NCBI GenBank assembly: GCA_963782915.1
Contig: CAWALK010000002.1
Coordinates: 1-49,734, forward strand
Direction: 5' to 3'
Source: an uncultured archaeon
Lineage (GTDB): Archaea; Thermoproteota; Bathyarchaeia; Bathyarchaeales; Bathycorpusculaceae
Length of the DNA stretch: 49,734 bases
Made by a program: the position numbers and the translations under genes. Position 1 is the first letter of the stretch. Every line of letters begins with the position of its first letter. Below, piece after piece: positions 13,678 through 28,420 of this stretch. The notes beneath the pieces are model-generated. The model made no database searches and had not been told where the DNA came from. It was given only the letters and a program-made list of their open reading frames with translations.

Positions 13678-15153
13678 CTATTGAGATGTTTGCATAAACT
13701 TTGCGAGTTTAGCTTTACGAACTTCGAGGACATCAGTTAGTTCAGTTTTGAGTTTTTCGGAAACTTCAGTCATCGCAGCAACTTCGGCAACAATTGTATT
13801 CATGTTCTTGCCGACAGTATCAACTTCTTCGATGATGGATTTAGCTGAACTATCAACTTTTGCAACACTTTCAACCACATCCATCGCAAGCTTAGCCATG
13901 TCTTTTGCTTCGCCGACTACACTGTTGGTTACTCGTTCAACCTCCTCGGAAGTTGACGAGACATCCCTAGCGATATTGGCCATTTGCTGAGCAGATGCAG
14001 TTTGTTCTTCAACTGCTGAGGAGGCTTCCTCTGAAGCAGATGAGCTTTCCTCGGCAATGCTCGCAACTTCCTCAATGGTTCTAACTACTGAGCTAAGTGC
14101 ATCTAATCCTTTTTCTACCCCGCTTGTTAGGTTGTTTACTTTGATGTTCATTTCACCCATAATTTTGGCGATGCCTTCGGATTCTTTGATAGCACCCAAA
14201 ACTACGTTTGCGCCTTCCGCTGCACCTACCTGCGACTGTTGAGTAATGGCGCTTGTTTGCATGCCCGCTTCTTTAATGCCTTTTACGAGGTTTATGGATG
14301 AGCCTGCGGCTACTTTTGATTGTCCAGCGAGGCCTTTGACTGCGTCGGCGACGACTGCGAATCCGCGTCCTGCTTCTCCAGCTCGTGCAGCTTCGATGGC
14401 AGCGTTTAGTGCTAACATGTTTGTTTGTCCAGCGATGTCAGAGACGGAATTAGCCATCTCCCCTACCTGCTCAACAGAGTTAACCATCGATGTTACAGCA
14501 TCTGATACTCGAACAATGTTACTTTTGATGTTCTCTATGGCTACTAGGCCTTTCTGTCCTTTTTCGTTGGCTTCCATAGATTTCTTTAATGCATCCTCTG
14601 TTACGGCTGAGGCTTCTCGGGCAATTTTGCCTGCTTCATCCATAACTTTCTTCAATGAATCACTGCTTCTTGCTGCATCCTGAGATAATTCGGCTAGTTT
14701 TTGAGATCCTACCGATACTTGTTGTGAGGCTGTGCTGACTTGTTGCATGCCGATAGCCATCTGGTTAGAAACATTGGCCGCTTCTTTGCCCATTTGAACT
14801 ACTTTAGCAGTTGATTTGCTTGCCGCTTCTGCTTTAGATGCTACTTTATTGGCGACGCCTTCAACGTTTTTCACGTTAGTGACAACTTGGCTAACCACTC
14901 CGCTTGTATCAGTTGCTAATTCAGCTACTTTCATAGCGCCCTGCATAGTTTGATAAGCAAGGTCTGTGGCTATAGCTGACTTCTGAATTGTAGCGTCCGC
15001 GGTTAAACTGATTCGCTCAGCGCTCTCGATGCCCTCTTGGAGCAATTGAACGATATACTCATAGTACTGTTTGTTTTGTTCATGTAGACGTTGATTTTCT
15101 TTTTCAAGCTTCTCGATTTCCGAGGCTTTTTTCTCTTTCTGTTCGTCAGTCAT
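13678..15153 (-). CDS. Soluble methyl-accepting chemotaxis protein (MCP2), paralog of MCP1
   Basis: Same signalling tip as MCP1 and shared [21 protein letters not shown]; no transmembrane segment. Confidence 0.95.
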
Positions 15154-15199
15154 TTCAGATTACTATCCCCTAGTCAATTGTCCAACTATTCAGTGGTTT

Positions 15200-15233
15200 G
15201 CTTATAAGTAGATTATGAAATCTTCATATGTAT
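15200..15233 (-). promoter_or_regulatory. MCP2 promoter: TATGAA-N3-TTCATA inverted repeat next to TTATAA
   Basis: Minus strand reads ATACATATGAAGATTTCATAATCTACTTATAAGC, matching 621-654. Confidence 0.55.
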
Positions 15234-15260
15234 TAGTGATAAACTAAAAAAAAGAAAAAA

Positions 15261-16283
15261 TTAGTTGCAAGCTTTTAGAATTGCTCGGGGAATCCTCTCT
15301 AGAGGAGCAACTTTATCCACACAACCGGTCTGGTTTGCTACATTTGGCATACCATAAACGACGCTGGTAGCTTGGTCTTGAGCAATGGTATATCCGCCAT
15401 GTTCCTTGATGGCTTTTATGCCTTTAGCGCCGTCGGAGCCCATGCCTGTTAGGACTACACCAATGTTTTTTGCGCCATAGATTTCAGCCATAGAAATCAT
15501 TAAAACGTCCGCTGCTGGTCGAACGTAATTTACCGGAGGATCAATCGTTAAGTGAATTTTGTGCTCTTTGGTTACAACCATGTGGAACCCGCCGGGGGCA
15601 ATTAACGCTAATCTTTCTTGTACGCGGTCGCCTTCTTGGGCTTCTTTTACTGTGAATTTGCAGCGTTCGTTTAAGCCTTCAGCGAAGAGTTTAGTGACTC
15701 CTTTGGGCATATGCTGAACGATCAGGATAGGTGGTGTATCCGCTGGAAGGGCTGTTAAAACCGAGGTTACTGCTGGCGGTCCACCAGTGGAGGCAGCGAT
15801 GGATATTATTCTGTCGCCGATTGAGGTTGCGCCGCCAATATCCTCTTGGGCAACGGGTTTTGTGGATGAGAGGTTAGCGGAAGCTGCTGTTTTTACTTTA
15901 GAGATTAATTCATCCCGTACTGAATCCATGTTGAGCGAGATTTGCCCGGAAGGTTTTGGGATATAATCAACTGCGCCGAATTCTAATGCTTTTAGCGTCA
16001 GCATTGCTTCTCGCTGTGTTAAGGCGCTGATCATAATAACGGGTGTTGGGCAAGACTCCATGATTCTGCGGACAGCTGTTAACCCGTTCATTTTGGGCAT
16101 TTCAATGTCCATTGTGACGACGTCAGGATGTAAACTGGCGACTTTAAGAAGAGCCTCCTCTCCGTCGCGAGCTGTGCCAACAACTATTATTTGTTTATCT
16201 GATTGTAGAAGGTCAGAGATTACCTTCTGCATGAGCAAAGAATCATCGACTATTAGTAATTTGATTGGCGACATAGGGTTCAC
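15261..16283 (-). CDS. cheB: Chemotaxis methylesterase CheB (REC + methylesterase)
   Basis: VDDS, DIEMPKMNG, ASTGGP, VQHMP, LTGMGSDG, VYGMP. Confidence 0.96.
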   Translation of the reverse strand: MNPMSPIKLLIVDDSLLMQKVISDLLQSDKQIIVVGTARDGEEALLKVASLHPDVVTMDIEMPKMNGLTAVRRIMESCPTPVIMISALTQREAMLTLKALEFGAVDYIPKPSGQISLNMDSVRDELISKVKTAASANLSSTKPVAQEDIGGATSIGDRIISIAASTGGPPAVTSVLTALPADTPPILIVQHMPKGVTKLFAEGLNERCKFTVKEAQEGDRVQERLALIAPGGFHMVVTKEHKIHLTIDPPVNYVRPAADVLMISMAEIYGAKNIGVVLTGMGSDGAKGIKAIKEHGGYTIAQDQATSVVYGMPNVANQTGCVDKVAPLERIPRAILKACN

Positions 16284-16313
16284 GACGTAAGGATGGTTGC
16301 AAGGAAAGGGTGG

Positions 16314-16829
16314 TTATGGTTTTTGTTGTTCTTTCTCTGTTTTGATTTGGAAACCCTTTGTGTCTTCACCCATGTTTAAGGCATCTTTGGAGGCTACACG
16401 GAGTAAGTCAAGCAGGATAATTAGGGATTTGTCGTGTTTTGCAACGCCCAGGACAGCTTCTGATTTGTCGATGATTAGGCTGTCTTGGTTTGCTTCGATG
16501 TCTGCTTTTGAAAGGGTTAAAACTTCCATGACGGAATCAACCATTATGCCGACGGGATGCTTGTCTTGAACGATTATCATGATGTTTGTGTTCTCGTTTT
16601 TTGTGATGGGCATGCCGAAGCGTCTGCGCAGGTCTATGACTGGGATTACTTCGCCTCTGAGGTTGGTTACTCCCCTAACATAGGATGGTGCATATGGAAC
16701 AGGGGTTACGCCTTCAAAATTTTTGACTTCACGCACTTGACTAACGTTTACGCCGTATAGGACGTCATCGAGTGAGAACGTTAGCATTTGCATTTCGTCA
16801 CGTGCATTTGCTTTACTGTTAAATGCCAT
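16314..16829 (-). CDS. cheW: CheW (second copy)
   Basis: VTPVPYAPSYVRGVTNLRGEVIPVIDL; start placed at MAFNSK. Confidence 0.93.
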   Translation of the reverse strand: MAFNSKANARDEMQMLTFSLDDVLYGVNVSQVREVKNFEGVTPVPYAPSYVRGVTNLRGEVIPVIDLRRRFGMPITKNENTNIMIIVQDKHPVGIMVDSVMEVLTLSKADIEANQDSLIIDKSEAVLGVAKHDKSLIILLDLLRVASKDALNMGEDTKGFQIKTEKEQQKP

Positions 16830-16944
16830 AGTATCGCCTAAACAGGTATGCCTATCGTTGAACTGCCTATAAGCCCTTATGAAAAGGCAGTATTGATTCA
16901 AAATCTACATTAAAGAATTCAAAAGTTAAGTAAATTGGGAAGGG

Positions 16945-17313
16945 TTAGACTATGTAGCCTTTGCTTCCGCAGCCAAGGTTTTGAAGCTGGTTTTTGAGCC
17001 AATCCTCACTCATCAGGCAATACTTTGCGGAGCCGCCTTCTATCGATATAACCATGATTAAATCGAGTTTGTCGAGTTTTGCGTATTCCATTAGGATGTC
17101 ATATGTGCCTTGGTTGATTTCGATGTCTAGGTCTTCTTGGGTGTTGTCGGATGCCCGTTTGGCGTGGAATATGGCTTTGAGTTTATCTGCGCCGTCCCTG
17201 ACTGCAACGTTGACACTGTTAACGTAATAGATTTTCTCGTTGTAACTTAGGATTACGTTTCGGGCGTTGTCAGATTTTACTTCGCTGTGCTCCATTTCTG
17301 AGTACCTCAACAA
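16945..17313 (-). CDS. Hypothetical protein between cheA and cheW
   Basis: 122-aa beta-rich ORF; not a receiver domain. Confidence 0.65.
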   Translation of the reverse strand: MLRYSEMEHSEVKSDNARNVILSYNEKIYYVNSVNVAVRDGADKLKAIFHAKRASDNTQEDLDIEINQGTYDILMEYAKLDKLDLIMVISIEGGSAKYCLMSEDWLKNQLQNLGCGSKGYIV

Positions 17314-17405
17314 TATAGGGATTGTTTGTGGCAGGCAATAAAGGTAAGCTTCCCCGCTGGGAATATGTCAAAAAACGCATCACTCAAGGAAAGGATAGAA
17401 GGGGT

Positions 17406-19451
17406 TTAGGTGGTTCTGTTTCTCTTCACGAATTGACCCACATCCAAGACCAACACAACCTGTCCATCGCCAAGAATTGTGGCGCCACTTACGCCTTTGA
17501 TCCCTGAGAGCGCATCATTAAGCGACTTGACCAATATGTCTTGTTGGCGCAGTACTGAATCAACGGCTAAACCCATCTTGGTGTTTTCGTCGCCTAAGTA
17601 TATGATGAGCAGTTCCATCTCTTCCTCGTCTGATTCAGGGAGGTTTAGCAGTTTATGAAGGTGCACCATTGGGATTACATGGTCTCGTACAACGATGGCT
17701 TCGGTTTTGCCTAGTTTTTGGACGTCTGATTTTTTGACGCGTACGATTTCTGAGACTTGGCTTGTGGGGATGGCAAAGGTTTCTTGGGTATCCGTAACTA
17801 GTATAGCCTGTATAATCGCCAGTGTAATGGGCAATTTGATGGTGGTTCGGGTGCCTTTGCCGATTTGGCTGTCAAGGTGTACGGTTCCGCCTAATGCGGC
17901 GATTTTGGTTTTGACAACGTCCATGCCGACTCCTCTGCCGCTGGTTTCTGTGACTTGTTTTGCGGTTGAGAAGCCTGGTAGGAAGATGAGGTTGATTAGT
18001 TGTTCTTTGGTCATTTTATCGAGTTCTGTTTGTGTTAGGAATCCTTTTTTGAGTGCGGAGAGTTTTACTTTGTCTGGGTCGATGCCTGCGCCGTCGTCGT
18101 AGACTTCGATGATTACTTGGTTGCCGTTTCTTTGTGCGGAGAGTACGATTTGGCCGCCTTCGTTTTTGTTGTTTGCTTGTCTTTCTTCGGGTAATTCTAT
18201 GCCGTGGTCGACGCTGTTTCGCAGCAAATGGATTAGGGGTTCGCCGATTTCGTCGAGGACTGAGCGGTCTACTTCGATGTCTCTGCCTTCCATGATTAAA
18301 TCGATTTTCTTTTTCTCTTTAAGCGATAAATCCCGTACGAGGCGTGGGAACCTGTCGAAGACTTGGCTCACTGGCACCATGCGTACCTGCATTACGAGGT
18401 CTTGGAGGTCTGCTGTTAAGCGGTCTATGTTTTCTGTGATGCGTTTTAGGCCGTCGCAGTTGTGGTTGTCGGAGGTTACTTGGAGCAATGCGATTTTGTT
18501 GATGACTAATTCGCCCACGAGGTTCATAAGTTTGTCTAGTTGGTCGAATTTGACGCGTACGGTTTGGGCGGTTTGGGTTTCTGCGGCTACTTTTGTGACT
18601 GCTTTGTTTTCGACTGTTACGGTATAGTTGCTTTCGGTTTGCAGTGCTGCTGCGGGCATGATGGCGTTTAGGGCGGTTGTTGAGTCGTTGAAGGCTGTGA
18701 CTTGGATTTCTTCGATTTCAAGGACTTGTTTTGCACAGTTTTCTAGGGATTTTTCGTCGAGTTTGCTTGTCAAAACGATTTTGAAGCCGTGGTTTAGTTT
18801 TTGTTCGTCGAGGTCGTTTTTTTCTGGGACTGTTTTGAGGATTTTTGCGACTTCGGTTATTTTGTCTAGGACCATGGATGCGCGTATGCTTTTGAATCCG
18901 CAGTCGGGGCTGAATTTGAGGTCGACTGTGTAGGCAGGTTTCGTCTGCGGCTAGTTGTGGGATGTCTTGTTTGGGTTCGGTTGTGGATTGAGCTGCTGGG
19001 TTTCTAAGGTGGGTTCTGCGGTTTTTGTTTCTTGCAGTTCTTTGTTGGGTTCAATGCGTGATAATTCGGATTTCATCGAATGCAACTTTGCACTGTAGCC
19101 TTCGTAATCTATTTCGCCTTCCACCTTGGCTTGGATGTTTTCGAGGCGCTGTGTGAGTGCATCAACACATTCCAAAAGTAAGCTGATTAGGTTGCAGGAG
19201 GGTTTGCTGCCTTTGCGCATGTCATCAAAGATGTCTTCCATGGCGTGGGTGAGTTCCTGGAAGTCCCTAAAGCCCATCATACCCGACGAGCCTTTGAGTG
19301 TGTGGGCGCTGCGGAAAAGCATGTTAACAACTTCCTGATTTTCAGGTTCCTTCTCCAGAATCAACATTGACTTAGTAATCGTTTCAATGTGTTCCTTTGC
19401 TTCTTCTATGAATAATGTCCTGTATTGGTCGTTATCAAACGACATCGTCAT
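17406..19451 (-). CDS. cheA: Chemotaxis histidine kinase CheA, interrupted in the P1-P2 linker (probable compensating indels)
   Basis: Hpt FRSAHTLKG; LDKLMNLVGELVI; HLLRNSVDHG; DDGAG; FLPGFST; SGRGVGMDVV; C-terminal CheW-like P5. Confidence 0.93.
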
Positions 19452-19780
19452 CACCCTGTAGTTGACTAGTCCCTGTTGTTTGAAGTACCATAGCCCCAAA
19501 ACCTGTAATTTGTTAGAGTGTGTCTCTGTTGTGACACTCAGAAACACTATAGTTGTTGTCGCCAAAAAGCTGCTATACACAGCATCTTCCAGTGGGTTTG
19601 GCTGGCAGCTGTGTTTTGAAGCGGGCGTTTGGGGTTGGTGGCTGGTTGTGGAGGTTTGTGCAAGCAGGTCGGGCTGGCGAGCGGTTGTAGGGTTAGTTGT
19701 GGTTTTTTTCTATAGGCCCCTTATCTAAAGGCGTATATGGAAGCGTATGCGCAAGCTCGATTGGATCTGTTGCTTTGCCA

Positions 19781-20927: not shown

Positions 20928-21200
20928 TTGCCTAAGGGTCCCTTAGGCGGTGTATTTTTGAGCCTTTGCGGTACATTATTTATCGGTGTCGGGTATGTTG
21001 AGCTTCTTTTTGGCTTGAGTGGTGGCGTGGGATATCCTCAGAGGATGGTTGCCCCTGAATCCTTTGTCGTGCAACAGATTGTTACTGGTGCTTCCATGTT
21101 GGCATTAGGTATTCTAAGTTGGGTTGTATTTTTAGCTCTAATTCTCACTAGAAGAGAGTTTTTGTTTGGCAAGAAGGAATTTACAACAATCAACCATTAA
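20928..21200 (+). CDS. Small two-TM membrane protein (unit R0-R1)
   Basis: Two hydrophobic helices; ends INH* with its TAA inside R1. Confidence 0.6.
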   Translation: MPKGPLGGVFLSLCGTLFIGVGYVELLFGLSGGVGYPQRMVAPESFVVQQIVTGASMLALGILSWVVFLALILTRREFLFGKKEFTTINH

Positions 21201-21268
21201 GAACAAGTTTTGGAGCGTTAGTTTAGTAAACCTCTTAAGTGAACTAACTTACATAGTCAGCGATTGTA

Positions 21269-21565
21269 ATGGTTGAATTATCCCCATTTGCTGAGCTACT
21301 GTTTTTCCTTTAATATTACACGTTACCAATGATGCCTTTTTTGGTTGGAGGCATTTTGTTCTATTTTAAGCCCAAGCATAGATTGAGCATAGGCGTTTCA
21401 TTGATATTTTTTGGAGTTATCGAATTACTATTCGCTTTTATTGAGTATTGGTATCCGTATGGAGCAGGATCATATTGTGGTTTTGGCTTACTGACAATAC
21501 TTCTAGGGGTAATATCTGTTCTTTACCCCAAAATGTTAAGCAAAGACAATAGAATCAAGAAATAA
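21269..21565 (+). CDS. Small multi-TM membrane protein (unit R1-R2); in-frame TAA near 21311
   Basis: ATG at 21269 is in frame with the 21329 ORF; three hydrophobic helices and a basic tail. Confidence 0.55.
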
Positions 21566-21687
21566 CTTCACACTCTCACTAACTTGAGTTGGAGAGCTAG
21601 AGTAACAATTTAATGGCCGCTAAAAGAAGTTCATTAGGGCTAAGTTTATTGTGATAGATTGATTAGTTGGGTGTAAAGGGATAAGGA

Positions 21688-21982
21688 TTGCATGAGTTTA
21701 GGCAAGTAGCCCTATTGGGTTTGATATTGGGTATTATTCTTGAGGCAGCAGGTTTTGTTTCCCTTGTTAATTATTTTGCTAACGATGTTGTGTATAATTA
21801 TTTGCTAGGTGGTATTGGCGTAATCGTTGTTGGTATAATGTTTCTTGCTAAGTCTGTGCCTGTGTTTATTCCCATTAAGCAGCAACAGTCTGTTTCTAAG
21901 GTTTGCCCAAACTGTGCAGCTTTAATTGAAGAGAATGCTAACAGTCTGTGAGAAATGTAAGCAACAAATAACTGAGAATTAA
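21688..21982 (+). CDS. Two-TM protein with C-terminal zinc ribbon (unit R2-R3); indel near 21945
   Basis: CPNC, then CEKC in a shifted frame, ending TEN* inside R3. Confidence 0.65.
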
Positions 21983-22057
21983 CCATTAAGAACTAGTTTT
22001 TGGAGCCCTATCTACTTCTAAGTAAATTATATAACATAACAAACTCATTAGTCCAAT

Positions 22058-22662
22058 ATGGCTAGAATGGGTAAATATCAATTATTATACTTAGTTGTAC
22101 TCTTAGTGGTCTCATAGCTTATTATTGATTGAATCTACTAAAGCGCAGATTGAACAAGTTCCTACTTATTGTGATATTTTTGTAGATGATATTGTTGAAG
22201 GACAACCTGTAACAGCAACAATCCAAATGTCTCCTTCAACACCAACTGGAGAAGGTTACACTCAATTAATTGTGTATTTAAAGTCTCCAAATGGCGTTGG
22301 ACCATCAAGCCCAAATGGTCCTTGGGTATACACTAATATTCCAACAGCCCCAAACGGCAGGGCTACAGTAACTTTTGATGTACCTACTTATAGTGGCAAA
22401 TGGTATGTATTTGTGGATTTTGGAGGTCACTCTTATGCTAACTATTCAATGTTTTATTTTGGAGGCACTTGGCAAAAAGAATTTACTGTTAATCCAGTTA
22501 CAACTCCAACACCTAATAGCACAACTACTCCCACTCCAGCTTCTATACCATGCTCCAACCTAAGTCCCAGAGTTTCCCATAACACTCTCATTGGTTGCAG
22601 TTCTAGCTGCTGTGAGTCTATTGCTGATATTAGGTAAGAGAAAGCTAAGTTTCACCTATTGA
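22058..22662 (+). pseudogene. Secreted Ig-like surface protein with PT linker and PEF-CTERM tail (unit R3-R4); disrupted
   Basis: Broken signal peptide; beta-rich core; TPTP linker; PEFPITLSLVAVLAAVSLLLILGKRKLSFTY* with TGA inside R4. Confidence 0.65.
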
Positions 22663-22682
22663 GAACTAGTTTTAACAGATAT

Positions 22683-22880
22683 ATGGAGCATTATTGGTTA
22701 TTACCTTGAAGTTGGTGTGACATTCTTTGCAGTTGTATATTTCTATTTTGAAGCATTGATTCTTTAGTGCTCTTGTAGGTTGGTTAATTTCTTTTCCACA
22801 ATTAGTACAATGGGTCAAAGGTATCAATTTGTTTATGGTTGAATAGAGATATGGCTTTTATGAATTCAAAATACACTTAA
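22683..22880 (+). pseudogene. Decayed small membrane-protein gene (unit R4-R5)
   Basis: Hydrophobic fragments (e.g. LEVGVTFFAVVYFYFEALIL) broken by stops. Confidence 0.35.
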
Positions 22881-23028
22881 CCAACAAACTATAAGGTAAT
22901 TTTCGGAGCGCAAAAATGCAATCAAGTAAAATATAACTTACAATTAGCTAAGTTCCGTTATAGCTTACCGTCTGTTTTGGTGTTGGGTTATAGTTTGGGT
23001 TGTAGGTGGGTTGTAGAAAGATTTTCAA

Positions 23029-23317
23029 GTGCAAGCACAAACAGGCTACTACGCCATAACTCAAAAGCCAGGACCTATACCTGGCGGACTTATTCAATTG
23101 CCTTCTGACTATACATCGATTACTTTTAATGAATCGAAAGCAAGTGATTGGAGCAATCCAATAACAGTTGACCTGAGTAAAATGGCTGTGGTAACTCCAA
23201 CCCCAACTCCCAATATACCAGAGTTTCCAATAACAATATTATTGGTTACAGTTCTAGTCTGCTGTTAGTCTATTGCTGATAATAGGTAAGAGAAAGCTAA
23301 TAGCAATCAACCATTAA
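23029..23317 (+). pseudogene. C-terminal fragment of a PEF-CTERM surface protein (unit R5-R6)
   Basis: SDWSNPITV, TPTPTPNIPEFPITILLV; shifted tail GKRKLIAINH* with TAA inside R6; no N-terminus. Confidence 0.6.
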
Positions 23318-23320
23318 GAT

Positions 23321-23542
23321 CTATTTTTTGAGCGTAGAAGGTGTGAGTGATTGTTGGTGTTTTTTCCAATCATTCTTTCTATCAATATGATAAGCAATAC
23401 CAATTAACGATAAAACAACAACTATAATAATCAAAGGAAAAAGGTTCATGTTGATAAGGCCATCAAATTGTCCATCTACAACGATGAGAATTGATAACAT
23501 TATAGTAAATAAGGTAATTTCTGGGGTTGGGCTAGCCAGCAC
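23321..23542 (-). CDS. Small two-TM membrane protein convergent on R6
   Basis: Hydrophobic helices; last codons and TAG lie inside R6. Confidence 0.5.
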   Translation of the reverse strand: MLASPTPEITLFTIMLSILIVVDGQFDGLINMNLFPLIIIVVVLSLIGIAYHIDRKNDWKKHQQSLTPSTLKK

Positions 23543-23586
23543 ACATTTATATCATAAGACAGCCCATTCATGAAAGGAGATCACCC

Positions 23587-23829
23587 ATGCAAGCCCTCAC
23601 AAAAAAAGCGGACCCCAAAATTCTCCAACTATTCCCAAGCCTCAACAGCACAAGCTCAGCAAACAATGCAGAGAAAAAAGCCGTCCTTCAACGAGTAGCT
23701 TGCTTAAAGGTTATCGGCGACAACGGCCCCGCCAGCACCTCGGATTTAGCCGTCAAACTCAAGGTTCCCCGAACTCAAGCAGCAAAAACCGCCAAAGAAT
23801 TGGCCTGCTTTATCGCTAATCAAGGCTGA
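23587..23829 (+). CDS. Small winged-HTH protein
   Basis: GPASTSDLAVKLKVPRTQAAKTAKEL; strong AGGAG RBS. Confidence 0.6.
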   Translation: MQALTKKADPKILQLFPSLNSTSSANNAEKKAVLQRVACLKVIGDNGPASTSDLAVKLKVPRTQAAKTAKELACFIANQG

Positions 23830-23936
23830 AAAAAACACAGAGAACCACCCATTTACACTCTGACAACAGCCGGCTTTGTTGCTTTAGCGGCTTTTGATGA
23901 AATTCGGATTGGACAAAGATTAAGTCAGCTTTAGCG

Positions 23937-24542
23937 GTGCCCCAGAAAAAAAATGACCCCCTGGCGTATGCGCTTCTGGTTGTTGGTTTCTGCGCTAACA
24001 AACCCGACGGCGTCTACCAAGCCCTATGCCGATATGGTGCTCAAGGGAACACATTCGAAAATATTCCAGCGGATGTTTCAGCGGAGGCATTGCTGAAGTT
24101 TTACCGCCAAGAACTGCGAGCCCAAAGCCCAGTGCCGCCCATATATCTGAGTGTTTTTAAGGAATTCACCACCGCAGGCTTCCAAGAAGTCTTCAAAATG
24201 CTACTGCTCGCCATTAAGCCGACTGCTGAGGATTACAATTGGCTTGTAGAATTCTTCAACGAGGTATCTGAATTCTATTTTGACCCTGCACGAATCGCTT
24301 TCGTCAACCTGCTGCCCCAAAGTGAAAAGTTACGGAAAGACTTGGATGACTTCAAGAAAGCCCAAGACCAACAAATCAAAAAGCAAAACGGCAACCTCGA
24401 AGTAACCTTCACAATCCCCGGTTCAGGCTTCTCCAAAATCGATGCCATGCCACCTCATCTGCGGGCAATAGGAATGAGGCTGATTCTTGAACCAGTCAAA
24501 TTCATAAATAAAGAATTGGTTGATTATTTCTGGGCAAAATAA
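23937..24542 (+). CDS. Hypothetical helical protein
   Basis: 201-aa ORF; no family recognised. Confidence 0.65.
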   Translation: MPQKKNDPLAYALLVVGFCANKPDGVYQALCRYGAQGNTFENIPADVSAEALLKFYRQELRAQSPVPPIYLSVFKEFTTAGFQEVFKMLLLAIKPTAEDYNWLVEFFNEVSEFYFDPARIAFVNLLPQSEKLRKDLDDFKKAQDQQIKKQNGNLEVTFTIPGSGFSKIDAMPPHLRAIGMRLILEPVKFINKELVDYFWAK

Positions 24543-24548
24543 ATTTGC

Positions 24549-25050
24549 CTAACTTTTTGCTTTGTCAGTGATTGGCGTTGTTTTAGTTAGGGCTTTTATG
24601 GCTTCTAATAATTCGGTTGAGGGTGGCGTGGGGACGATGGTTAATCGGATTAGGCTTGAGTATTCTGCTTTGTAGTTGTAGGTGTTTTGGTATTTTGCGT
24701 CTACTGTGTTGGTTTTGAAGCGGTAGCCTGCGCGGTCACTTACATTTTTTGCGGCGGTGTTTGAGGAGGTGTTTTTTGTTGTGGAGAGGGCTGTTCGGAT
24801 TTCTACGGTACTGCTTTGAATGCTTAGCAGTGTGGGTAGTACGCCGAAGGCTAAGGCGTTGCCGCTGATTTCGCGGTTTTCAGCTTTGCCCTCATTGTTT
24901 TTTGTGTAGCCAATGGTTAGGTCTGTGGCGGCTAATTCTTCGATTGCGGCTACGTAGTTTTTGTTGGCTTCATTTTGGGAAGAAACCATTGCGAGAAGTA
25001 CGTCGCGTATCAAATCGCTCAAGTGAAGCGTTTTCGTCAGTAGAGGACAT
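24549..25050 (-). CDS. DUF2589-like protein, paralog of 26085-26612; indel near the start
   Basis: Shares LLAMV-x-x-QN-x-AN, ISGNALAFG-x-LPTLL-x-IQS, TVDAKY and P-x-PP. ATG at 25050 follows a GGAG RBS, one base out of frame. Confidence 0.7.
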
Positions 25051-25065
25051 AGCGTAACTCCAGGG

Positions 25066-25818
25066 TTAAGTTGGGGTTCTGGCTACGATGCTTTTAGCGG
25101 AGTCTATAAAGCGTTTAGAATCCTCAACTGTTATGCGGTAGGTTTTGGGGACTTTGGCTTTGCCTGATTTTATGGTTTCATCCAAGATTTTGGCGAGTTC
25201 CTCAGGCGCTATCTGTGCCAGTTTCTCTTTGGAATCAATCTTGTTGGCCACAAGGAGTTCCGCGACTTGTTCGTCAACGCCATCTACGCCTGCGATGTTG
25301 CTTTTCACCATCAGTTTAGCCATGCTTACGAATTCAGCAGCTTTCTTACGGGACAAATCGGCTTTGACTAAATCATCCACTGAAGCCACAGCTAAATCAC
25401 TTACAGTTTCTATTCCTTGTGCACGGAGCCGCTCGCCAATGACTGTGCCGATGCCTTCGACCGCTTCAACGGGTCGTCTGCCGCTGGCAGGCTTAACTTC
25501 CATAGGAATAGGCCTCAACGTTAAGCTCAGGGTGCTCATGGTGTTGGGGTCAAGGTCACCCTGCTTTGTCGGTAGAGCGAACAAGGTTTTTTCTCCTTCT
25601 TGGGTAACCACGGCTTTAAGCTGTAACGTGAAATCTGCGAGCACAAAAGTAGTCGAGCGATCCTGAGCCATAGCAAAATCGTGAACACGCAAAAGATCCT
25701 TCTGAATTGAGGTTATCAGGGTTGCTGAATCTACTTTGGCAGCAAAAGAGGCTTTTGTATCAACCACTTTTTCTGCTGTTATTTTTTCTATTTTTTCTTT
25801 ACTTGCCATATTTTTCAC
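25066..25818 (-). CDS. Trypco2-like N-terminal domain fused to HhH (DUF4332-like) repeats
   Basis: LITSIQKDL...FVLADFTLQLKAVV...STLSLTLRP, then VEGIG..GERLRAQGIETVSDLA and VDGVDEQVAELL. Confidence 0.7.
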   Translation of the reverse strand: MKNMASKEKIEKITAEKVVDTKASFAAKVDSATLITSIQKDLLRVHDFAMAQDRSTTFVLADFTLQLKAVVTQEGEKTLFALPTKQGDLDPNTMSTLSLTLRPIPMEVKPASGRRPVEAVEGIGTVIGERLRAQGIETVSDLAVASVDDLVKADLSRKKAAEFVSMAKLMVKSNIAGVDGVDEQVAELLVANKIDSKEKLAQIAPEELAKILDETIKSGKAKVPKTYRITVEDSKRFIDSAKSIVARTPT

Positions 25819-26072
25819 CTATGAGTTAATTTGAATGTGAGTTTGAGTTCACTTTCGGCTTTATCGCCGTAATAGTTGAGTTCTTCTGCGTTGGAGGGCA
25901 CTACTTTGATGCCGCCATCGTTGAGGACTAAGCATTTTATGTGCAACTCGATTTGGGGAATGACGAATTGAACCGGTTGGTCTTGGGTAGCATCCAAGGC
26001 TTGATTTAAACCGTCGTTAGCTTCACTTAACAGACTGGAAATTAAAGAAAAAAGGGTTGGAGTAGAAGTCAT
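25815..26072 (-). CDS. Small Trypco2-like protein
   Basis: Helix LISSLLSEANDGL, strand FVIPQIELHIKCLV, terminal SELKLTFKL; overlaps the next gene. Confidence 0.65.
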   Translation of the reverse strand: MTSTPTLFSLISSLLSEANDGLNQALDATQDQPVQFVIPQIELHIKCLVLNDGGIKVVPSNAEELNYYGDKAESELKLTFKLTHR

Positions 26073-26084
26073 AGTGATTTACGC

Positions 26085-26612
26085 CTATGGTGTTGATGAA
26101 GCTGAAGATGATGCTGCAGCTGCTTTTGGTGTTGTGTCTTCGGTGATTTTTTCGATAGCTTTCATCAGTGCTGCTGGTGGGGGTGCTGGGCCAACTTTGA
26201 TTTCGATGAAGCTTGAGGCTTCGACCGAGTAAGAGTATTTGCTGGAGTATTTTGCGTCTACTGTTGCTGAGAAGAATGCCCATCCGCCTTTGGCACTCAT
26301 CTTGACTTCTGCCTCAGTTGTCTTCTGCATCGTGATGACCATTTTGATTTGGATGGTTCCGCTTTGTATTTGCAGCAGCGTGGGGAGTATACCGAAAGCT
26401 AAGGCGTTGCCGCTGATTGTGGTTTTTGTGCTGGATGAGTCGCCGGCTTTGGTGTAGGTTAAGTTGACGGGGGTTTCAACGAGGTCTTGTACGCCTTCGA
26501 TGAAGGATGTGTTTGCGTCGTTTTGCGCTGCGACCATTGCTAAGAGTAGGTTGCGTATCATCTGATCGAATGGTACACTTGCTAGTTCTGTTCCTATTGA
26601 TAATGCAGACAT
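26085..26612 (-). CDS. DUF2589-like protein
   Basis: ELASVPFDQMI...AMVAAQ start; long S/T-rich beta hairpin; PAPPPAALMKAI end; GAGG RBS. Confidence 0.72.
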   Translation of the reverse strand: MSALSIGTELASVPFDQMIRNLLLAMVAAQNDANTSFIEGVQDLVETPVNLTYTKAGDSSSTKTTISGNALAFGILPTLLQIQSGTIQIKMVITMQKTTEAEVKMSAKGGWAFFSATVDAKYSSKYSYSVEASSFIEIKVGPAPPPAALMKAIEKITEDTTPKAAAASSSASSTP

Positions 26613-26757
26613 TTTATGTCATTCCTCAAAGAGGATATCGCTTGCTTCGCTATTTAAGACTTGAGAAATGCTAGTGAAGAGAATCTGTGTCCAACACAAC
26701 TACAACAAAACAGAACCAAAATAAAAATAATGAAATAAAAATATTTAAATTAAGTAA

Positions 26758-26785
26758 TAAAAAGGCTAAACTACGGGGTTTAGCT
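26758..26785 (-). terminator. Hairpin plus U-tract after the small ORF
   Basis: Minus strand reads GCTAAAC-CCCGTA-GTTTAGC-CTTTTTA. Confidence 0.5.
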
Positions 26786-26917
26786 GGATTCTTTCTGTTT
26801 CTTAACAGTGTTTACGTAAGTCTTCTTTGTGTTTTTCTTCCTATAGTCACAGTGAGGACGAACGGATGATTTACATCTTCGGCAGTTTTTAACTAAACCT
26901 ACTCTTAATTGACACAT
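26780..26917 (-). CDS. Unannotated 45-aa basic Cys-rich microprotein
   Basis: MCQLRVGLVKNCRRCKSSVRPHCDYRKKNTKKTYVNTVKKQKESS; A-rich leader upstream and terminator downstream. Confidence 0.5.
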   Translation of the reverse strand: MCQLRVGLVKNCRRCKSSVRPHCDYRKKNTKKTYVNTVKKQKESS

Positions 26918-27268
26918 ATTTTTTTTCTCTTTATTTTTTAGAAAAGAATCAATTATTCAATCAGTGATTAAGTCCAAGAGGATAAAGGAAACTCTTCACG
27001 CACTCAAATGACCACGCCCCATATAAGGCTTAAAAAAAATATCTGTTTTTTCCCAAAGAAAAAAGCAATTAACCCATTTCCGGCAAAAAGGCGCAATTTA
27101 GAAGTTTTTTCTAAGTTGCAGGCAAAAACGGTTTTTTTAGGCGCATACCCTAATATAGCACAAAAACGCATTTAGTGATATTAGAATTCTTTAGAGGAAG
27201 AGTAACCAAGATTATCACTTGCTTTTTCTGGATTATTCTATTAGAAAGCGATAATCGAAGGTTAAAAA

Positions 27269-27574
27269 ATGGGTAAAAGAAAAATAACAAACGAGAGTAA
27301 TCAAGATAGCATGGTTCTACCTTCCTCAAACGATGTCTTGGGCATAGCAGTAAAAATGCTGGGTGCCGATAGAATCATGGTTAAATGCCAAGATGGACAA
27401 GAAAGATTATGCCGCATACGGGGCAAACTAAAAAGACGCGTATGGATTCGTGAAGGCGACATAGTCTTGGTTTCTCCTTGGGATTTCCAAACTGACCAAA
27501 GAGGAGACATCTTTTGGCGGTACAGAAAAAACCAGTCAGATTGGCTACGAAGCCACAATTACTTAACAATGTGA
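27269..27574 (+). CDS. eif1a: Translation initiation factor aIF-1A
   Basis: KMLGADR, CRIRGKLKRRVWIREGDIVLVSPWDFQ, RGDI-x-WRY. Confidence 0.96.
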   Translation: MGKRKITNESNQDSMVLPSSNDVLGIAVKMLGADRIMVKCQDGQERLCRIRGKLKRRVWIREGDIVLVSPWDFQTDQRGDIFWRYRKNQSDWLRSHNYLTM

Positions 27575-27584
27575 GGGCTATAAG

Positions 27585-27755
27585 ATAATACTCAAATGCG
27601 TTGAATGTGGAAACACATTCCTAAAAGACCGCCTTGTTGAGGGCGAAACAGTTACTTGCCCTGTTTGCGATGCAAACTATAGAGCAGTAGTTAAAGATGG
27701 AAAAGTCCGCCTTGAAGATTTTGAATTCGAAGAAGGCGACCTTGGCGAATTTTAA
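27585..27755 (+). CDS. LysW-like zinc-ribbon small protein, probable ATA start
   Basis: (M)ILKCVECGNTFLKDRLVEGETVTCPVCDANYRAVVKDGKVRLEDFEFEEGDLGEF; GTGAGGG RBS; in-frame TAA at 27564 and no ATG/GTG/TTG between it and the CxxC. Confidence 0.75.
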   Translation: MILKCVECGNTFLKDRLVEGETVTCPVCDANYRAVVKDGKVRLEDFEFEEGDLGEF

Positions 27756-27979
27756 CCGCCAACTCACCAAACTTATTTTTTAAGCATAAAAGGCCGATGA
27801 TTTAGCGGTTTAAAGTTGAGCAGTTATCGAATTCTAAATATATCCAACAATTGCTTATCGTCAAATTAGTTATTTGATTATTTTTCGTATCGAATCCGGT
27901 TTTCTTTACCGTCAAAATATACATAGAGAATACCATATAGATATTAAGTCGGTTCCACATCTTCTAATCCTCTTCAGGA

Positions 27980-28420
27980 TTGTCTGGTTCTATGGAATGT
28001 CGCTTGCAAGTTTTTAAAAGGGACCCAGTGGATAGTAGCCTAGCAAAGACCTACCGCTTTGCTGTTTTAGATTCAAGCAAATCAAAAGAATACCCCGCTA
28101 ACTTTGTCTGCATGTTACCAGTAAAAGTAGAGCAAGGAAGCGGAAAAAGCGCAAACGTATTCGGCGAAATTTTCGGAGAAAAAAGCTTAGTCGTCGCCAT
28201 TGAACTGCTAAATAAAGCCCTCAAAAACGAAAGCGACGACGAAGTGAAATTGGAAATTGAGCGACGAATAAAACTAATAGATCCACTTCAATCCAAACTC
28301 GTAAAATGCAGTGTATGCAAAAAAACCTTCCAACCCGTAAAATTCAGAAGGTATAAGCAGAACTTCTGTGAAACCTGCTTAAAGACCCGTTATAAGCAAA
28401 GATATACACAAAATGTTTAA
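27980..28420 (+). CDS. Hypothetical protein with C-terminal C4 zinc finger
   Basis: CSVC...CETC. Confidence 0.7.
   Translation: MSGSMECRLQVFKRDPVDSSLAKTYRFAVLDSSKSKEYPANFVCMLPVKVEQGSGKSANVFGEIFGEKSLVVAIELLNKALKNESDDEVKLEIERRIKLIDPLQSKLVKCSVCKKTFQPVKFRRYKQNFCETCLKTRYKQRYTQNV

Follow-up and report, generated by a model that had tools for sequence, protein, structure and literature searches.

A conserved and mobile multi-paralog module of DUF2589-like proteins in archaea and bacteria, with wandering HhH and PASTA domains

Among the described protein groups closest to the gene cluster considered here are DUF2589, a family of no known function, and Trypco2/Pepco, only recently characterised, as a protease-gated pore. 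Trypco1 and Trypco2 were named as neighbours of trypsin-like peptidases, according to the available portion of that study (eLife 2020, PMC7159879). Pepco, as far as the accessible part of its preprint describes it (bioRxiv 10.1101/2025.11.14.688446), forms pre-assembled, denaturation-resistant, helix-based barrels of 9-10 subunits. Their amphipathic helices are basal, the barrel is apolar outside and charged in its lumen, and Pepco is activated by removal of a charged, proline-rich C-terminal tail. On the DUF2589 side, the 'short DUF2589 related genes' AF0414-AF0417 of Archaeoglobus fulgidus are given as up-regulated on lactate in the accessible part of one report (PMC3949148); in another paper a DUF2589 gene appears only as a table entry. 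Our literature searches found no functional characterisation of DUF2589, nor of the DUF2589-like module described here from a 49,734-nt stretch of DNA (contig CAWALK010000002.1 of an uncultured Bathycorpusculaceae archaeon; hereafter the window), in agreement with a preliminary description, made from the sequence alone, that knew of no characterisation in archaea. In the window this module occupies 24549..26612 on the minus strand, where that description had read a four-gene operon of related helix-plus-beta-hairpin proteins, similar to DUF2589 and Trypco2, with an HhH fusion, a candidate hetero-oligomeric pore or filament system with a possible role in defence or secretion.

Four related genes and their nearest families

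The cluster is one instance of a conserved, mobile, multi-paralog module of the DUF2589 superfamily, in which HhH and PASTA domains wander between subunits and to which a winged helix-turn-helix (wHTH) gene is linked. Its four genes, A, B, C and D, were found as open reading frames (ORFs) at the coordinates first proposed, head to tail and tightly spaced, with 12 nt between A and B, a 4-nt overlap of B and C, and about 15-43 nt between C and D. The four genes are thus in place, but a fifth, E, lying outside the span first assigned to the unit, belongs to it as well.

Gene A (26085..26612, minus strand) encodes, by its ORF and translation, a 175-aa long-type DUF2589-like subunit laid out as an N-terminal helix, a small hairpin, a long amphipathic beta-hairpin (residues ~84-140), a PPP motif, a C-terminal helix and a low-complexity tail. 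Gene B (25815..26072, minus strand; 85 aa) reads as a minimal Trypco2-like subunit of a helix plus strands. Gene C (25066..25818, minus strand; 250 aa) joins a Trypco2-like N-terminal domain with a helix and 3-4 strands, here called Cn (residues 1-112; 25483..25818), to a C-terminal (HhH)2/DUF4332 domain recognised by Pfam (residues 113-250; 25066..25482). Gene D (24549..25050, minus strand; ~166 aa from an ATG at 25050) arose from A by a duplication specific to its lineage, and its hairpin is the more polar of the two.

As had been noticed, the two are clearly paralogous, A and D sharing 62 of 151 residues (41% identity; BLAST E 2e-43). All motifs listed in the preliminary description are present in the four translations. 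The alternating hairpin sequence that it quoted corresponds to residues 98-134 of A, and the order of elements common to A-D (a helix, a strand ending in I/L-x-I/L-K, a loop, a closing S-x-L/I-x-L/I strand and then P-x-P) can be read in each protein and is backed in part by the profiles. The hairpin of D is indeed the polar version, its first arm being polar on both faces, and no signal peptide is visible in the N-termini of A-D, as judged by eye.

Direct BLAST gave a weak match between B and the N-terminus of C (E 0.002, 24 residues) and none between A and B or A and C. Profile comparisons with hhalign linked B to the Cn family from which B rows had been removed (probability 92.5%, E 4.8e-7; a separate value of 99% is not independent, since that alignment included B rows), the short A-type proteins of related loci to Cn plus B (73%, E 3e-5), and B to the short A-type (69%, E 4.6e-5); all A-type proteins together reached only 25% against Cn plus B (E 7.5e-4). 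The aligned columns are those singled out beforehand, namely the I/L-x-V/I-K strand and the closing S-x-I/L strand ahead of P-x-P. The proposal that the four proteins form one superfamily is supported; the direct profile comparison of B with the A family was blank. A common origin of A, B, C and D is likely, on the basis of a chain of profile links and not of every pair.

We compared the A family with DUF2589 at the level of both single models and whole profiles. The Pfam model (PF11655) aligned with A collinearly over 1-153 of 154 positions, at E 0.036 and 14.8 bits against a cut-off of 23; D matched neither DUF2589 nor Trypco2, and a six-frame scan of the genome with DUF2589 gave no match at E <= 10. 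Among 137 diverse family representatives the model reached E <= 0.01 in two, and a separate sample of 24 yielded two weak matches. Despite these sub-cut-off scores, hhalign aligned the A family with a set of 12 genuine DUF2589 proteins from Archaeoglobales (1e-40 to 1e-46 against the Pfam model) over 159 columns, at 95.2% probability and E 2.5e-8, which bears out the DUF2589 link first suggested from the letters.

The likeness extends from full-length profile homology to cluster plan. The Pfam model finds genuine members in 12 of the 81 Archaeoglobales genomes, and at 11 of these 12 loci two above-cut-off DUF2589 paralogs lie side by side (~1e-40 and ~1e-20), the second copy at the twelfth (G450/L094) being split into two short fragments. 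In these clusters, of which A. fulgidus AF0414-AF0417 is an example, the two adjacent paralogs are followed by a small Cn-like gene: our A hidden Markov model (HMM) matches the first gene at 11 of the 12 loci, the Cn HMM matches the next small gene at 9 of 12, and hhalign joins Cn to this third gene (64%, E 6.5e-5), while Trypco2 matches 0 of the 12 third genes. Features common to both families are an 'ELxxxPxxxxI' helix at the N-terminus, a hairpin that turns at GW and a helix at the C-terminus. They differ in that the window's proteins fall below the Pfam cut-off (A) or give no match (D), and in that the window's clade adds HhH/DUF4332, the duplicated long subunit D, the minimal B and the wHTH gene E. 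On these grounds the window's A family is a sister to DUF2589 that lacks annotation and shares its cluster plan.

The similarity to Trypco2 fared less well. B scored 16.5 bits (E 0.01) and Cn 14.0 bits against the Trypco2 model (PF19631), whose cut-off is 24.2. In a six-frame scan of the 3.28-Mb genome the model matched two places in all, B (15.8 bits) and C (13 bits), but both scores lie below the cut-off, and none of the database relatives listed carries PF19631. Weak matches were obtained for 3 of 22 Cn/B members and 1 of 137 A-type representatives. Like Pepco, the module's products are small proteins in which an N-terminal amphipathic helix is followed by strands and a proline-rich exit, in the same order, and the A hairpin has an apolar and a charged/polar face, as the Pepco barrel does in the available part of its description. 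Unlike Pepco, the module has no trypsin- or caspase-like protease next to it and lacks a STAND or vWA-MoxR partner; it comprises several distinct paralogs rather than one homo-oligomerising protein, it carries folded HhH, PASTA and LamG domains where Pepco has a cleavable tail, and all its Trypco2 scores lie below the Pfam cut-off.

Conservation, transfer and accessory domains

A search of a word-indexed protein collection with A returned 59 relatives at E <= 1e-3, from Bathyarchaeia and Nitrosocaldus (48-98% identity), one of which is named 'DUF2589 domain-containing' by NCBI and none of which has a precomputed Pfam domain. With a profile built from 21 A relatives, 423 representative clusters were found at E <= 1e-3 among 1.84 billion proteins, 148 of them at E <= 1e-10. 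In a search with a diverse profile, none of the 120 matches listed, out of 176, had a Pfam domain, and nearly all were named 'hypothetical'. Contigs from one genome per species contained 91 stretches that encode a relative, from which 78 distinct loci were kept. The archaeal hosts include Bathyarchaeia, Nitrososphaeria, Methanosarcinales, Methanomassiliicoccaceae, Halobacteria and Archaeoglobaceae; the bacterial ones include Rhodobacteraceae, Clostridia, Bacteroidota, Myxococcota and Verrucomicrobiota.

HMMs iterated from A, B, C(1-112) and C(113-250) were run over all ORFs of these loci. At least two A-type genes (or A plus B) lie beside one Cn gene in 73 of 79 loci, and most of the six exceptions are at a contig edge or have an unexplained gap in place of Cn; the operon is thus conserved well beyond the window. 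The Cn HMM matched in 76 of 81 loci. B occurs in 28 loci of the Bathyarchaeia/Nitrososphaeria clade, a count that includes three overlapping copies of the window operon (WIN, L001 and L002).

We built a maximum-likelihood tree of 55 A-type rows that represent 27 of the 79 loci; it separates a long type of 35 rows from a short type of 20, each with support of 100/99. The Bathyarchaeia/Nitrososphaeria clade (12 rows, 100/100) is nested in the long type, and D is nested in the A clade with support of 100/100; on this tree, D is a duplicate of A that arose within the Bathyarchaeia/Nitrososphaeria clade. That clade lacks a canonical short A-type protein, and B occupies its place. The long and short subtrees contain matching subgroups, in which archaea and bacteria are mixed, and the module therefore moves as a unit by horizontal transfer. 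It is a patchy accessory, present in 11 of 301 genomes of the class, in 3 of 14 other genomes of the genus and in 30 of 121 Methanosarcinales genomes, with one copy per genome.

The HhH fusion proposed for C is sound: residues 118-243 match DUF4332 (PF14229; E 2.8e-11, 44.1 bits against a cut-off of 23.2) and HHH_5 (PF14520; E 1.9e-10, 41.5 bits against 27), both above the Pfam cut-offs, and NCBIfam gave partial HhH matches only. The C-terminal part of C (113-250) thus resembles described DUF4332/(HhH)2 domains in matching both models and in recurring widely in the related loci. It differs in being an appendage of a helix-plus-hairpin subunit, with DNA, RNA or protein as its putative ligand.

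Of the 79 loci, 46 encode HhH/DUF4332; its carrier is the Cn protein in 32 of them and an A-type protein in 14. PASTA behaves likewise, occurring in 29 loci (18 on Cn, 11 on the A-type), with 12 repeats in one Methanosarcina protein. Other fusions are coiled coils before Cn, Laminin_G_3/pentraxin, Big_2, He_PIG and a segment like L7/L12_C; in the survey of loci, PASTA and lectin domains were absent from the window's clade altogether. A domain attached to one subunit in some lineages and to another elsewhere is classically taken as evidence that the subunits form one complex. HhH and PASTA follow this pattern, which argues for a physical complex here, and the module proteins probably build a single multi-subunit assembly.

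At two Methanosarcina loci (L079, 1405-5493; L076, 929-5509) a second, giant Cn protein of 1362-1526 aa, in which a long coiled coil is combined with a Cn domain and 12 repeats of PASTA, is encoded just upstream of the module, and the module there adjoins the genes of ribosomal proteins L3, L4 and L2.

Clustering of the ORFs that flank the related loci identified a further family, E, linked to the module in 23 loci, the window included. In the window, gene E (23587..24542, plus strand) is convergent with D. Intact homologs have 284-362 aa, and the window's copy is broken, with an in-frame stop at ~23827 and a frameshift at ~23900 by tblastn and translation; contigs of relatives show an indel at 23807 and skip 23833-23900. 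The N-terminus of E is a wHTH similar to the C-terminal wHTH of CARF3/Csa3 (PADLOC, E 2.8e-6); outside the wHTH no Pfam family matched, and the conserved C-terminal domain is of unknown family. E lies downstream and convergent in most Bathyarchaeia loci, and upstream on the same strand in Nitrosocaldus-type loci. It was present in 7 of the 301 class genomes, exactly the seven that have the high-scoring A subtype, and in 0 of the other 294; in one of the seven, E and A are on different contigs. E may be a winged-helix regulator of the module.

Possible assemblies of the module proteins

We examined the hairpin of A for the two-residue periodicity of an amphipathic strand. Family-averaged hydropathy of both arms peaks at 180 degrees (period 2), with z 3.8 for arm 84-108 (reached by 8 of 5000 shuffles) and z 3.6 for arm 111-140 (9 of 5000), and the helices flanking the hairpin peak near 100 degrees (z 2.3 and 2.4). 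The long hairpin of A is amphipathic beyond chance, in keeping with the alternating pattern first described for it.

The AlphaFold2 (AF2) monomer of A is unreliable (mean pLDDT 43.6, pTM 0.24). Its low-confidence elements (H15-46, E48-57, E60-69, E86-103, E122-139, H147-159) follow the order read from the sequence, but the model was too poor for a fold search, and such searches were made with Cn. The AF2 model of Cn (C residues 23-113; mean pLDDT 77.0, pTM 0.55) has a helix packed on 3-4 strands (E5-8, H9-29, E41-52, E55-60, E73-79). Foldseek found no PDB match to it at E <= 0.001 (best E 0.91), and VIA-align against 48,161 chains reached a best Z of 3.3, with no similar solved structure. The structural check suggested in the preliminary description thus gave no solved relative for the N-domain of C, and these failed searches do not establish a new fold. 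Sequence searches of the PDB with the family profiles (A2, A3, A4), the genuine-DUF2589 profile (A8) and protein E returned only noise, and the DUF2589 profile found no solved structure there.

The best reading, which we hold with low confidence and by analogy with Pepco, is a protease-independent, Pepco-like hetero-oligomeric ring. It is tentatively possible that A-D are subunits of one cytoplasmic hetero-oligomer with a shared helix-plus-beta-hairpin core, forming a ring that acts on a membrane; this assembly is possibly a membrane pore. By that analogy, the N-terminal amphipathic helices and the amphipathic hairpins would stand side by side as a ring or beta-barrel, apolar on the outside and charged or polar within. 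A would contribute the long, membrane-competent hairpin, and D, B and Cn would be its shorter or polar partners in the ring. The (HhH)2 domain of C might hang from the ring after the P-x-P exit and tether it to, or sense, nucleic acid. More speculatively, a trigger received through the appended domains, and not a protease cut, would let the pre-formed ring act on the membrane, and the cell might then respond by suicide or dormancy, the module being a horizontally mobile accessory for conflict or stress.

Several observations weigh against a Pepco-like ring. Similarity to Trypco2 always lay below the Pfam cut-off, PF19631 was found on none of 33 database relatives and on none of the 120 matches listed out of 176, and a search for genuine Trypco2 sequences found none in 5 host genomes or in the 121 Methanosarcinales genomes. 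With no protease beside the module, the route by which Pepco is known to be activated is missing. Three hhalign comparisons were blank, namely B with the A family (0.4%), the short A-type with genuine DUF2589 (1.5%) and B with the Archaeoglobales third gene (1.1%). To these are added the unreliable monomer model of A, and the fusions to PASTA, LamG and Ig-like domains, which are more typical of surface proteins. The A proteins of Bathyarchaeia and Nitrosocaldus are 60-66% identical, which is slow for an immune effector, and the sole expression report that we found, in the accessible part of PMC3949148, is metabolic.

The suggested link to defence or secretion found no direct support either. 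There is no peptidase beside the operon in the window, and a survey of 84 proteins flanking 12 loci, and of 24 flank clusters, found no protease or ATPase as a conserved neighbour. PADLOC-DB 2.0 gave 0 families for A-D at E <= 1 and matched E through the wHTH only (CARF3), and among the 12 sampled loci and the window PADLOC saw defence-like flanks only at L027. The neighbours are mostly housekeeping genes, with no conserved enzyme; examples are ribosomal protein genes at five Methanosarcinaceae loci, and ABCE1 and TYW2 at the Nitrosocaldus loci. The flank survey showed no conserved secretion genes. No phage copy was found in 50,697 phage records or in IMG/VR, and the one plasmid match, a 303-kb Sphaerotilus replicon, carries five hypothetical genes among metabolic genes. 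Overall, the superfamily, the DUF2589 link, the HhH fusion and the conservation put forward in the preliminary description stand, but the Trypco2 likeness is weak and the proposed function lacks direct support.

The same hetero-oligomer could instead be a non-lytic intracellular scaffold, a ring, sheet or filament with the HhH domain as DNA anchor, serving a physiological accessory role and not killing; on present evidence this structural role is about as likely as the Pepco-like ring, and no less tentative. Coiled coils and PASTA rods would extend the scaffold in other lineages, and its task might lie in nucleoid or envelope organisation or in adaptation to growth state. The strong conservation of A across two archaeal classes fits such a role, as do the single copy per genome, the housekeeping neighbours, the lactate response of AF0414-AF0417 in the accessible part of that report, and the defence hallmarks that the PADLOC, flank, phage and IMG/VR searches failed to find; the long coiled coils of Cn proteins elsewhere also give weak matches of crescentin or filament type. 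Against it, the patchiness within the genus (3 of 14) and the cross-domain transfer better suit an optional conflict or niche module, and an amphipathic, S/T/K-rich hairpin of variable length is a trait of beta-barrel pore formers.

That hairpin, amphipathic in both arms, would also suit proteins that leave the cell by a leaderless route and act as an extracellular multi-component beta-pore-forming toxin or adhesin, with PASTA, LamG and Ig-like domains binding target envelopes and hairpins entering the foreign membrane. The family's fusions to PASTA (up to 12 repeats), Laminin_G_3/pentraxin, Big_2 and He_PIG agree with this, and the multi-paralog layout recalls bicomponent pore formers. We nevertheless judge an exported toxin or adhesin improbable: reading the N-termini by eye reveals neither a signal peptide nor a membrane anchor, secretion genes are not conserved nearby, and the window's clade is without any PASTA or lectin domain. 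At one locus (L057), moreover, PASTA arrays terminate in an (HhH)2 domain within one and the same protein, which argues that those arrays are cytoplasmic. The empty BLAST comparisons of A with B and C and the blank profile comparisons would also suit four mere neighbours, unrelated small proteins that resemble one another in composition and have no joint function. That reading is largely refuted and has next to no claim on belief, given the retention of the gene set in 73 of 79 loci from both domains of life, paralog trees that mirror each other, several profile links with E between 1e-5 and 1e-8, and accessory domains that swap between subunits.

The most far-reaching form of the Pepco-like reading is a new, self-contained effector common to both domains, a DUF2589-like/Trypco2-like hetero-oligomeric beta-barrel that is protease-free and gated by ligand-binding arms, (HhH)2 for nucleic acid and PASTA or lectin domains for envelope or glycan cues; we regard this as rather doubtful. 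If it were true, DUF2589 clusters and Pepco would be two branches of an ancient family of pre-assembled, membrane-perforating rings in archaea and bacteria. Should the ring or pore reading hold, pore-based cell-suicide effectors would extend to archaea and to protease-free control. What is new irrespective of function is an unannotated family tied to DUF2589 and a multi-paralog module of fixed make-up that passes between the two domains of life. Among its hosts, Methanosarcina, Methanolobus, Methanimicrococcus, Youngiibacter, Octadecabacter and Sphaerotilus are in culture, and the function of the superfamily is therefore open to experiment; Methanosarcina and Methanolobus have the form made of long A-type, short A-type and Cn-PASTA genes.

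Gene models and neighbouring genes

As listed, the ORF of D is 157 aa long (24549-25022, minus strand) and starts with TTG at 25022. Searched against the window by tblastn, a 168-aa D homolog matched 25050-25021 with its residues 3-12 and continued from 25022 in another frame with residues 12-168. The first segment translates as MSSTDENASL, and a close relative's metagenome contig (95-99% similar) has one base missing at 25021. Because the homolog matches in two frames and the relative's contig is without that base, D most likely starts at the ATG at 25050, with a 1-nt frameshift in the window near 25021 that is either an assembly error or a real lesion. Single-base indels between the window and contigs of close relatives (95-99% alike) were seen at 23807, 25021, 26082 and 26100-26103. 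Two of these sites coincide with the out-of-frame places in E and D, and the window may carry assembly indels. Gene C may start at an ATG at 25809 instead of the GTG at 25818. A 73-nt stretch with the ISGNALAFG-LPTLL motif is 79% identical at the DNA level between D (24798-24870) and A (26346-26418). This exceeds the expectation from 41% protein identity, and strong constraint or gene conversion could lie behind it.

Upstream of A, 26613..26660 (minus strand) reads as a putative operon promoter and leader, with a TATA-like TTAAATA at 26657-26651, 39-45 nt ahead of the ATG, and a GAGG at 26627-26624 in the putative leader. Between the 3' ends of E and D, a pattern scan found an 8-bp hairpin (24531..24551), by consensus match only, that is a possible bidirectional terminator. 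An Rfam search of 22500-28000 gave no match. Sequencing runs matched the window in small shares (<= 0.15). One 237-nt contig from a sediment metatranscriptome library aligned with 26382-26618, the 5' part of A, with 4 differences; it may be DNA carry-over and is too little for a claim of expression.

The window's module adjoins a chemotaxis operon, and so does the module of another genome of the genus (G193), where it lies directly beside the CheA gene. The window's operon (13678-19580) encodes CheB, CheW and CheA, the last read as two ORFs, an Hpt part (18951-19580) and a part from P2 to the CheW domain (17406-18875); either a further indel or a genuine split of the gene could explain this. 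A gas-vesicle idea, raised by the alpha-beta-beta-alpha order and the host range, was dropped when no gvp family appeared among the flank proteins.

Elsewhere, Youngiibacter-type loci (L048, 135-671; L049, 7998-9051) have a CHAT (caspase-like) ORF ~3 kb upstream of the module and, immediately downstream, two TPR proteins; no other protease was seen close to a sampled module. At a Chitinophagales locus (L069, 8993-9535) the gene next after Cn-PASTA is a lone one for a T4 gp19-like tail tube, with a peptidase M15 gene upstream. Between the chemotaxis operon and E, the window has a low-GC region (21100-23340; 0.355-0.41) with three copies of a 51-nt repeat. Two small Pro/Thr-rich ORFs lie there (22125-22637 and 23029-23268), with 3' ends 88-95% identical, and the second ends in P-E-F-P and a hydrophobic tail, which we take to resemble an archaeal C-terminal sorting signal.

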